Positions 330 through 2,307 of a stretch of DNA of 6,131 nt are shown here, one piece after another. A program made the translations under genes and the position numbers. Numbering within the stretch: position 1 is the stretch's first letter; each line of letters opens with the position of its first letter. Below the pieces are notes generated by a model that saw nothing but the letters and a program-made list of their open reading frames with translations, did not search any database and was not told where the DNA came from. This stretch comes from a virus (taxonomy: Duplodnaviria; Heunggongvirae; Uroviricota; Caudoviricetes): the IMG/VR virus record IMGVR_UViG_2690316166_000019; one strand, written 5' to 3'.

Positions 330-2307
330 TTATTCTGCTTTACCAATAACGATATTTACGAAAGCTTCAGAGTGTGCAAGTGCGATATCTGAGTAATCCC
401 ATACGCGATATACGATAGTGTTACTTGAACGATAGGATGTATCGTCATAATCTACTTCCTGCCCTTCCCAATTAGCGAGAATTACATTGGAGAAATCGCC
501 CATTAGAATAGTACCATCTGCTACGAATTCAGAAATCACTACACGTACTTCATCAGCAAGCCACATTTCAGTACTGCGATAACCTTCAACCATTGCTTTA
601 GCAGCAGTGTTATCAAGTACTGCAATCTGACGTAGGGTACTTAGGGTTTTAGCGTTCATAACAGCTTTAACGCCACGCATATCAACGTTAGCCTGTGCCA
701 GCTTCGCTACTGCACCCTGAACATCTTCAAGAGTAATAGAACCAGCAGTTTCAACATTGAACACCGGAGCAGCGGCAACTACTTTATCCATTACATTTTG
801 CTCAAGACCCTGAGCGGCATACCGTAGTAGTTCACTTTGTACAAATGATTCAATATTTGGAGCCGTTAGAATTGCTTGTTTGGATAGTGGAATAGCACCA
901 CCAAAAGCTTTAGGGCTTAGGGTTACTTTAGTAAAGCTTGCAATAGAATCATCCTGTGCTTCTGCTTCACCATAGAATTTAAATACCGGAGATACACCAG
1001 CCGCTTTTGGAATACTTAGAGTACCGCGACCTGCAAGGCCAGAATAAACAGTGGTGTTTAGTTCACCAAGTGCAGAAATTTTTAGTAGTTCTGGAATGTA
1101 TTGATCTTGTAGGTCATCAGCTACAACGCCAGCAGCGGTAGTAGTATTAGTACTTGGTACAGCCGCACGTACAAAACCANNNNNNNNNNNNNNNNNNNNN
1201 NNNNNNNNNNNNNNNNNNNNNNNNNNNNNNNNNNNNNNNNNNNNNNNNNNNNNCTACAACGCCAGCAGCGGTAGTAGTATTAGTACTTGGTACAGCCGCA
1301 CGTACAAAACCATTAATACCACGTTCATATGCTTCAAGAGCAGATTTATCGCCAGTTTTAATGGCACGTACCATATCTTTTAATAGATTTTTATTATCCA
1401 TTTCTTTGATTTCCTTATCATGAAGAGGATTTTGTTTAATGTCATTCAATTGACGTTTGAAATCTGAAATTGAAATTCCTGTTTCAATTGCTTCAGATAC
1501 ATCAATATTAAGTACTTTACCGAGTGCTTCTAATTCACGAATACGTTCAGTATCTTCTGTACTATTTATACTTTCTGGTTCTTCACCATGTACTTTATTG
1601 AGCAAATCAGGTCGAGTAGAGATAATTTCTAAAAGTTCTTCATCACTTAATTCTTGTTTGATTTCTTCTGCATATTCGACCGATGGCTCTACTAATGCCT
1701 CTTCAATTGTTTCATTTACTTCTTCAGTACTATCAACAATTGATTCCTTTTCGTTTTCTGGATTATCCATATCCATTTGACCCTCTTGAATTGTTTCACC
1801 TTCTTTATTTAGTGATTTCAATGCAAGTTGTGAGTCCATTGAACGACCTACCCCAACGGTAGGATCGGCAGGTACTGTTACTAATGAGATTTCATAAATT
1901 TCGTAGTTGGTAACATAGATATTATTACCATCAATTTGATAATCATTAATGTTATAGCCAATGCTAATATGGGTTAGTACGCCTTCCTGAATCATTTCCC
2001 ATTCATCGTTGGCGGTACTGCTAATTCGTAATGTAGCTCTACCAACGCGATCAGCATCCACTCGTGCATCAACTACAGCACCAATAAGATCATCACGGTT
2101 ATGGTTAAAGAGTACTGCCCCATTGTTATTAAGGCGGGTTAGGTCTGCGTTACTGGAACCACATAGAAGAATTTCGTTATAGATTTGACCGTTGATTTCA
2201 CGTTCTACAGGGGTTTCTGAACAAAACGCTACTTCGATGGTACGCGATTCTGTATTAATCGCCTGTAGGGGTTTCGTTAGTTCCCTCTTCTGGTTTTTCA
2301 TTTCCAT
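330..2307 (-). CDS. Tripartite capsid gene: HK97-family prohead protease + acidic scaffold/delta domain + HK97-fold major capsid protein. Appears as two ORFs (330..791, 1147..2307) only because of an N-run with duplicated flanks; about 614 codons once the duplication is collapsed
   Basis: N-terminal ~155 aa carry prohead-protease motifs ([29 protein letters not shown]). Residues ~165-330 are strongly acidic and helical (scaffold/delta-like). The C-terminal ~270 aa include [28 protein letters not shown], resembling the HK97 gp5 segment RQVMDDAPMLQSYINNRLMYGLALKEEGQ. I translated the minus strand from 791 up to 1179 in the frame of ORF 330..791 and found no stop. Removing the 133-bp artifact (74 N + one 59-bp copy) brings ORF 1147..2307 into that same frame. 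Start ATG at 2305-2307 is preceded by AAGGAAG. Confidence 0.75.
1121..1312. repeat. Perfect 59-bp direct duplication (1121-1179 = 1254-1312) flanking a 74-N run (1180-1253); scaffolding artifact, not a biological repeat
   Basis: Both copies read ctacaacgccagcagcggtagtagtattagtacttggtacagccgcacgtacaaaacca, ending and starting exactly at the N-run. Collapsing to one copy yields a continuous capsid ORF. Confidence 0.85.

Follow-up and report, generated by a model that had tools for sequence, protein, structure and literature searches.

The question raised by this locus is whether an exact 59-bp duplication that interrupts a phage capsid gene belongs to the phage genome or to the assembly in which that genome was recorded. 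The window analysed here is the whole stretch of DNA of 6,131 nt and is the reverse complement of the complete 6131-bp record CXEP01000236.1 (GCA_001256535.1). It contains six runs of N, which are listed with the other features of the locus in Table 1. A sequence-only reading of the window had stated that the 59 bases before one of these runs are identical to the 59 bases after it. Sequence comparison demonstrated that the match is exact and in direct orientation and that the two copies abut both edges of the N-run. A repeat scan of the window revealed that this pair is the sole long exact direct repeat, the other repeat families being 16–24 nt in length and imperfect. With 4.3 kb of called bases in the window, an exact match of 59 nt placed precisely at the two edges of a gap cannot be due to chance.

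Table 1. Features of the 6,131-nt window that bear on the interrupted gene, with the size of each N-run compared with the distance between its flanks on contig L002
Feature	Position	Strand	Ns	Distance on L002 (bp)	Overestimate (bp)	Remarks
Left 59-bp copy	1121..1179					Real sequence, end of the left-hand contig piece; identical to 1254-1312
N-run 1	1180-1253		74	-59	133	Gap judged false; flanking pieces overlap
Right 59-bp copy	1254..1312					Superfluous copy at the start of the next contig piece
Spurious stop TAA	1147..1149	-				Left copy translated in the wrong frame past the Ns
Apparent start ATG	789..791	-				Internal Met462 of the repaired protein
N-terminal gene part, about residues 1-331	1313..2307	-				Peptidase_S78 and putative acidic scaffold-like linker; repaired translation
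C-terminal gene part, residues 332-614 and stop	330..1179	-				Predicted HK97-fold capsid domain
Second false gap with flanking repeats	2716..2754					Exact 8-bp repeat TCAGACCC at 2716-2723 and 2747-2754
N-run 2	2724-2746		23	-8	31	Within the second false gap
N-run 3	2866-3797		932	807	125	
N-run 4	3824-4095		272	241	31	
N-run 5	4204-4711		508	436	72	
N-run 6	5377-5417		41	7	34	

The junction was compared with gap-free relatives by means of a 78-nt probe representing its collapsed form, in which a single 59-mer is framed by the left and right flanks. The probe was found as an exact match in four IMG/VR contigs (L001–L004), all free of Ns and each carrying a single copy of the 59-mer. Every called segment of the window aligns with L001, L002 and L003 at about 100% identity; L004, which comes from a metagenome, is 95–97% identical to the window and 95% identical at the protein level, and crosses the joint ungapped. 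On L002, window positions 33–1179 map to 98–1244 and positions 1254–2723 map to 1186–2655, giving an overlap of exactly 59 bp, and the window segments likewise overlap by 59 bp on each of L001–L003. The single-copy state that we infer for the window is read from these near-identical relatives rather than observed in this DNA.

An exact 59-mer scan of genome and metagenome contig collections gave no match; relatives were found in IMG/VR only. In INPHARED, no near-identical phage was present, the sole match at the DNA level being an IS2 end and the best protein match being 30.7% identical. The element is absent from the E. coli complete genomes, which matched only in a 75% identical terminase stretch and in IS ends. 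No match was obtained among the PLSDB plasmids, and therefore the element is not a plasmid or phage-plasmid on record.

Read literally, the minus strand holds two ORFs, 1147..2307 (386 codons) and 330..791 (153 codons), the first of which passes through the Ns before it terminates. The sequence-only reading had predicted that deletion of 133 bp would unite them, and this was borne out: removal of positions 1180–1312 (133 bp, 1 mod 3) gave a single minus-strand frame of 614 codons that runs from 2307 to 330 without a stop, the frame being open from 1178 down to 330. The stop that ends the longer ORF arises only when translation passes through the Ns and enters the left copy in the wrong frame, and the methionine at which the shorter ORF seems to begin lies inside the repaired frame, so both signals are artefactual, as had been suggested. 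The duplicated stretch codes for residues 332–352 of the repaired protein, and the break lies between linker and capsid, just where the capsid domain begins (Pfam Phage_capsid, from residue 350).

The corresponding protein of L001–L003 is also 614 aa in length and equals the repaired protein except for I256V. The difference goes back to window position 1542, where the window has T and L001–L003 have C, giving Ile256 rather than Val in the linker region; the full-length protein with Ile256 was not found in a collection of 15 billion proteins. The L003 protein is listed at NCBI under the name ‘phage major capsid protein [Shigella sonnei]’ and occurs on 149 contigs, the longest of which measures 4.99 Mb (chromosome). 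This S. sonnei protein (e.g., ENT2288383.1; a 41-sequence cluster) shares 613 of 614 residues with the repaired protein, and its flanking genes are the same in L001–L003. It differs from the window in having Val256 instead of Ile256 and in that its gene is intact, whereas the gene in the window is broken by the false gap.

The presence of the collapsed junction in four N-free contigs with one 59-mer each, together with the recovery of a coherent 614-aa gene, bears out the earlier proposal of an unmerged contig overlap. We consider it almost certain that the N-run is a scaffold gap placed between two overlapping, unmerged contig ends and that the genome itself is continuous here, with a single 59-mer. 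Two contig pieces sharing 59 bp at their ends would have been placed side by side in a scaffold; the scaffolder or gap-filler would then have set the distance between them too large and written a positive run of Ns, and the overlap, left unmerged, would have left the 59 bases present twice. The true sequence would then have one 59-bp copy and encode a single polyprotein of 614 residues on the minus strand. ALLPATHS-LG has been documented to give negative gap sizes to contigs that overlap within scaffolds (PMC5368935), and a Velvet/SSPACE/GapFiller pipeline has been run on 299 highly fragmented S. sonnei assemblies, in which the N-gaps made by SSPACE were subsequently targeted by the greedy GapFiller (PMC5320598). 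The locus resembles such negative-gap artefacts, known from ALLPATHS-LG and from SSPACE/GapFiller, in that the N-run is flanked on both sides by identical sequence, in that collapse reproduces independent assemblies and restores reading frames, and in that several gaps in the same record are oversized. A pipeline of the Velvet/SSPACE/GapFiller type is a plausible maker of the gap. The supplements of the Sanger pipeline paper (PMC5320598) do not list the source accession, and therefore the assignment to this pipeline is one that we infer.

The remaining gaps of the record were compared with the same relatives. All six N-runs are oversized relative to L002, by 31–133 bp (Table 1). The second gap carries the same signature on a smaller scale: its flanks overlap by 8 bp on L001–L003, a true distance of -8 bp, and removal of 31 bp (23 N and 8 bp) gave a frame identical to that of the lambda-family portal protein of L003, a match to Pfam Phage_portal_2, so that the portal gene is also split by a false gap. 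All six gaps are accounted for by a scaffolder that sets distances too large and leaves short overlaps unmerged. A constant k-1 overlap of de Bruijn type was considered as well and rejected, as the overlaps differ (59 and 8 bp). The 26-bp island of called bases between two N-runs (3798–3823) is genuine and was found in L001–L003.

These data bear directly on the alternative that the duplication is real, in which case two 59-mers would stand about 74 bp apart, with unread sequence between them, and the locus would be a frameshifted capsid pseudogene in a decaying prophage. The window does come from a distinct genome, with the SNP at 1542 and IS junctions of its own, and a private rearrangement is possible in principle; however, none of the four related contigs (0/4) carries the duplication. 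The prophage is also visibly degraded, IS2 truncating the terminase and IS911 the head-tail attachment gene, and another inactivating lesion in such a prophage would not be selected against, but the two copies are 100% identical and both stop exactly at the edges of the Ns, as contig ends would and unlike a biological repeat. Moreover, the second gap with the same signature is also single-copy in the relatives, and every one of the N-runs overestimates the true distance. Were the duplication real, the 133-bp insertion would be one more step in prophage decay; we regard this as very improbable. Still less credible is the idea that the Ns hide 74 real bases, owing to low quality or to masking by the provider, with the flanks to be taken literally: some of the collections used do mask a few stretches as N, but masking leaves the length unchanged, and we reject it because the lengths of the N-runs disagree with the real distances, each differing from the matching stretch of L001–L003 and two corresponding to negative distances, while the NCBI record is identical to the window, Ns included.

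With the N-run read as a scaffold gap over an unmerged overlap, the repaired gene can be considered as a whole. It appears to encode, in one chain, an HK97-type prohead serine protease, an acidic scaffold-like linker and a major capsid domain of the HK97 fold. The protease part matched Pfam PF04586 (Peptidase_S78) at residues 61–153 (window 1849–2127) with 38.7 bits against a cut-off of 21, and the capsid part matched PF05065 (Phage_capsid) at residues 350–608 (window 351–1127) with 64.9 bits against a cut-off of 24.2. Among the NCBIfam models, TIGR01554 (HK97 major capsid) scored above its cut-off (76.5 vs 27.5 bits) and the equivalog TIGR01543 (HK97 protease) below it (47.2 vs 59 bits). Glu and Asp are abundant in the roughly 200 residues between the protease and capsid domains. 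By eye, His69 (FNHNRDD) and Ser115 (HISIGY) stand at what we take to be the positions of the catalytic pair of HK97 gp4. The split of the capsid gene described in the sequence-only reading was real and a single frame was restored, but the product is not a plain capsid protein; it is a protease-linker-capsid fusion.

The single-chain architecture of protease, linker and capsid is already known, and the gene is already catalogued. PHROG 617 (‘major head protein’) aligned in one stretch from residue 3 to residue 607 with profile positions 6–620 of 626 (E = 1.3e-83), and PHROG 4523 (phrog_4523; ‘major head and protease protein’) matched the N-terminal half. The NCBIfam model NF045541 (prohead protease/major capsid protein fusion protein) gave 126.2 bits against a cut-off of 525, with the match limited to the N-terminal profile positions 1–250 of 634; by this score the repaired protein is not a member of that narrow model despite having the same architecture. 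A tblastn search of phage genomes returned co-linear matches over 95–99% of the length at 24–31% identity. The same three-part, single-chain layout occurs at this level of identity in, among others, Escherichia phage DCP80, Vibrio phage VP882 and Burkholderia phage Mica as well as in the Xanthomonas phages FoX and Murka, where the protein is named ‘major capsid protein and protease’. As for HK97 itself, the likeness lies in the Peptidase_S78 and HK97-fold capsid domains and in the segment between them, which is in the position of the scaffold or delta domain. In HK97 the gp4 protease and the gp5 capsid protein are encoded by separate genes, whereas the window gene is one ORF. A search of the literature on protease-capsid fusions yielded nothing usable, and database family names were used instead.

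The consequences of the false gap are visible in the annotation of the record. An exact search with the 153-aa capsid fragment led back to the window itself, as CXEP01000236.1. This record carries five gene calls, namely a 229-aa terminase fragment, a 49-aa ORF, a 100-aa portal tail, a 153-aa capsid fragment and a 99-aa ORF. The sequence-only reading had expected two mis-called genes at the break. One of them is there, in that the capsid gene is represented only by the truncated 153-aa fragment (330..791); the second is missing, the protease and linker part having been left uncalled. The duplication is an assembly artefact rather than a biological feature and holds no new biology. At least two phage genes, the one for the protease-capsid protein and the one for the portal, are given wrongly in the record, and the finding is of value for curation only. 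Where draft Shigella genomes are used to count pseudogenes, tandem duplications or truncated capsid and protease proteins, records of this kind would mislead. A simple screen for the artefact is to look for N-runs that are directly preceded and directly followed by identical bases. A metagenomic contig (L006; ENA ERZ28647196, scaffold_802) has a 10-N gap (591–600) elsewhere in the same capsid gene, which also shifts the frame and leads to a call of the same 153-aa fragment, from a different artefactual cause.

The gene sits in the lambda-like head module of an IS-riddled prophage, a module with an IS911 end on one side and an IS2 end on the other. On the minus strand, the gene order in the window is a gpA-type large terminase, a 176-aa ORF, a lambda-family portal, the protease-capsid gene and an FII-type head-tail attachment gene, the last of which is a weak match to the lambda FII-type protein; L003 runs on into tail genes. 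The 176-aa ORF (L003 1599–2129; window about 4096–4203 plus the flanking N-runs) gave no Pfam match. Its location between the terminase and the portal is the place of gpW in lambda. The last 33 bases of the window (6099–6131) are an IS2 end: they match IS2 copies of E. coli and of Stx phages at 100%, and the IS2 annotation in Shigella phage SfX supports this assignment. The gpA terminase loses its N-terminal part to this IS2; about 108 positions are missing from the beginning of the ATPase profile, and the ATPase domain starts at profile position 109. At the opposite end, window positions 1–33 are an IS911 end, the matching E. coli stretch lying directly upstream of the IS911 transposase gene, and this end replaces the last 13 or so codons of the FII-like head-tail attachment gene. 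On the basis of the protein identity and the IS ends, the host organism is most likely Shigella sonnei.

The IS ends are placed differently among the relatives. In L003 the same IS911 end is found 9.1 kb further downstream, which suggests that this isolate either underwent an IS-mediated deletion or carries an additional copy of IS911. In L001 and in L008 (918–1003) an IS2 end lies near the equivalent of window position 22, and in L001 an IS911 lies near window position 5593, the two sites in L001 being at its ends. Because the IS2 and IS911 ends are placed differently in L001, L003 and L008, the insertion sites differ between genomes, and the prophage appears to be polymorphic for IS insertions between isolates. 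The chromosomes of Shigella and E. coli have a G+C content of about 51%. The called bases of the window have a G+C content of 39.6%, well below that value, which is consistent with a horizontally acquired prophage. Within the FII-like ORF (17..316), positions 207–247 form an inverted repeat with arms of 17 nt that are 94% complementary and a loop of 7 nt.
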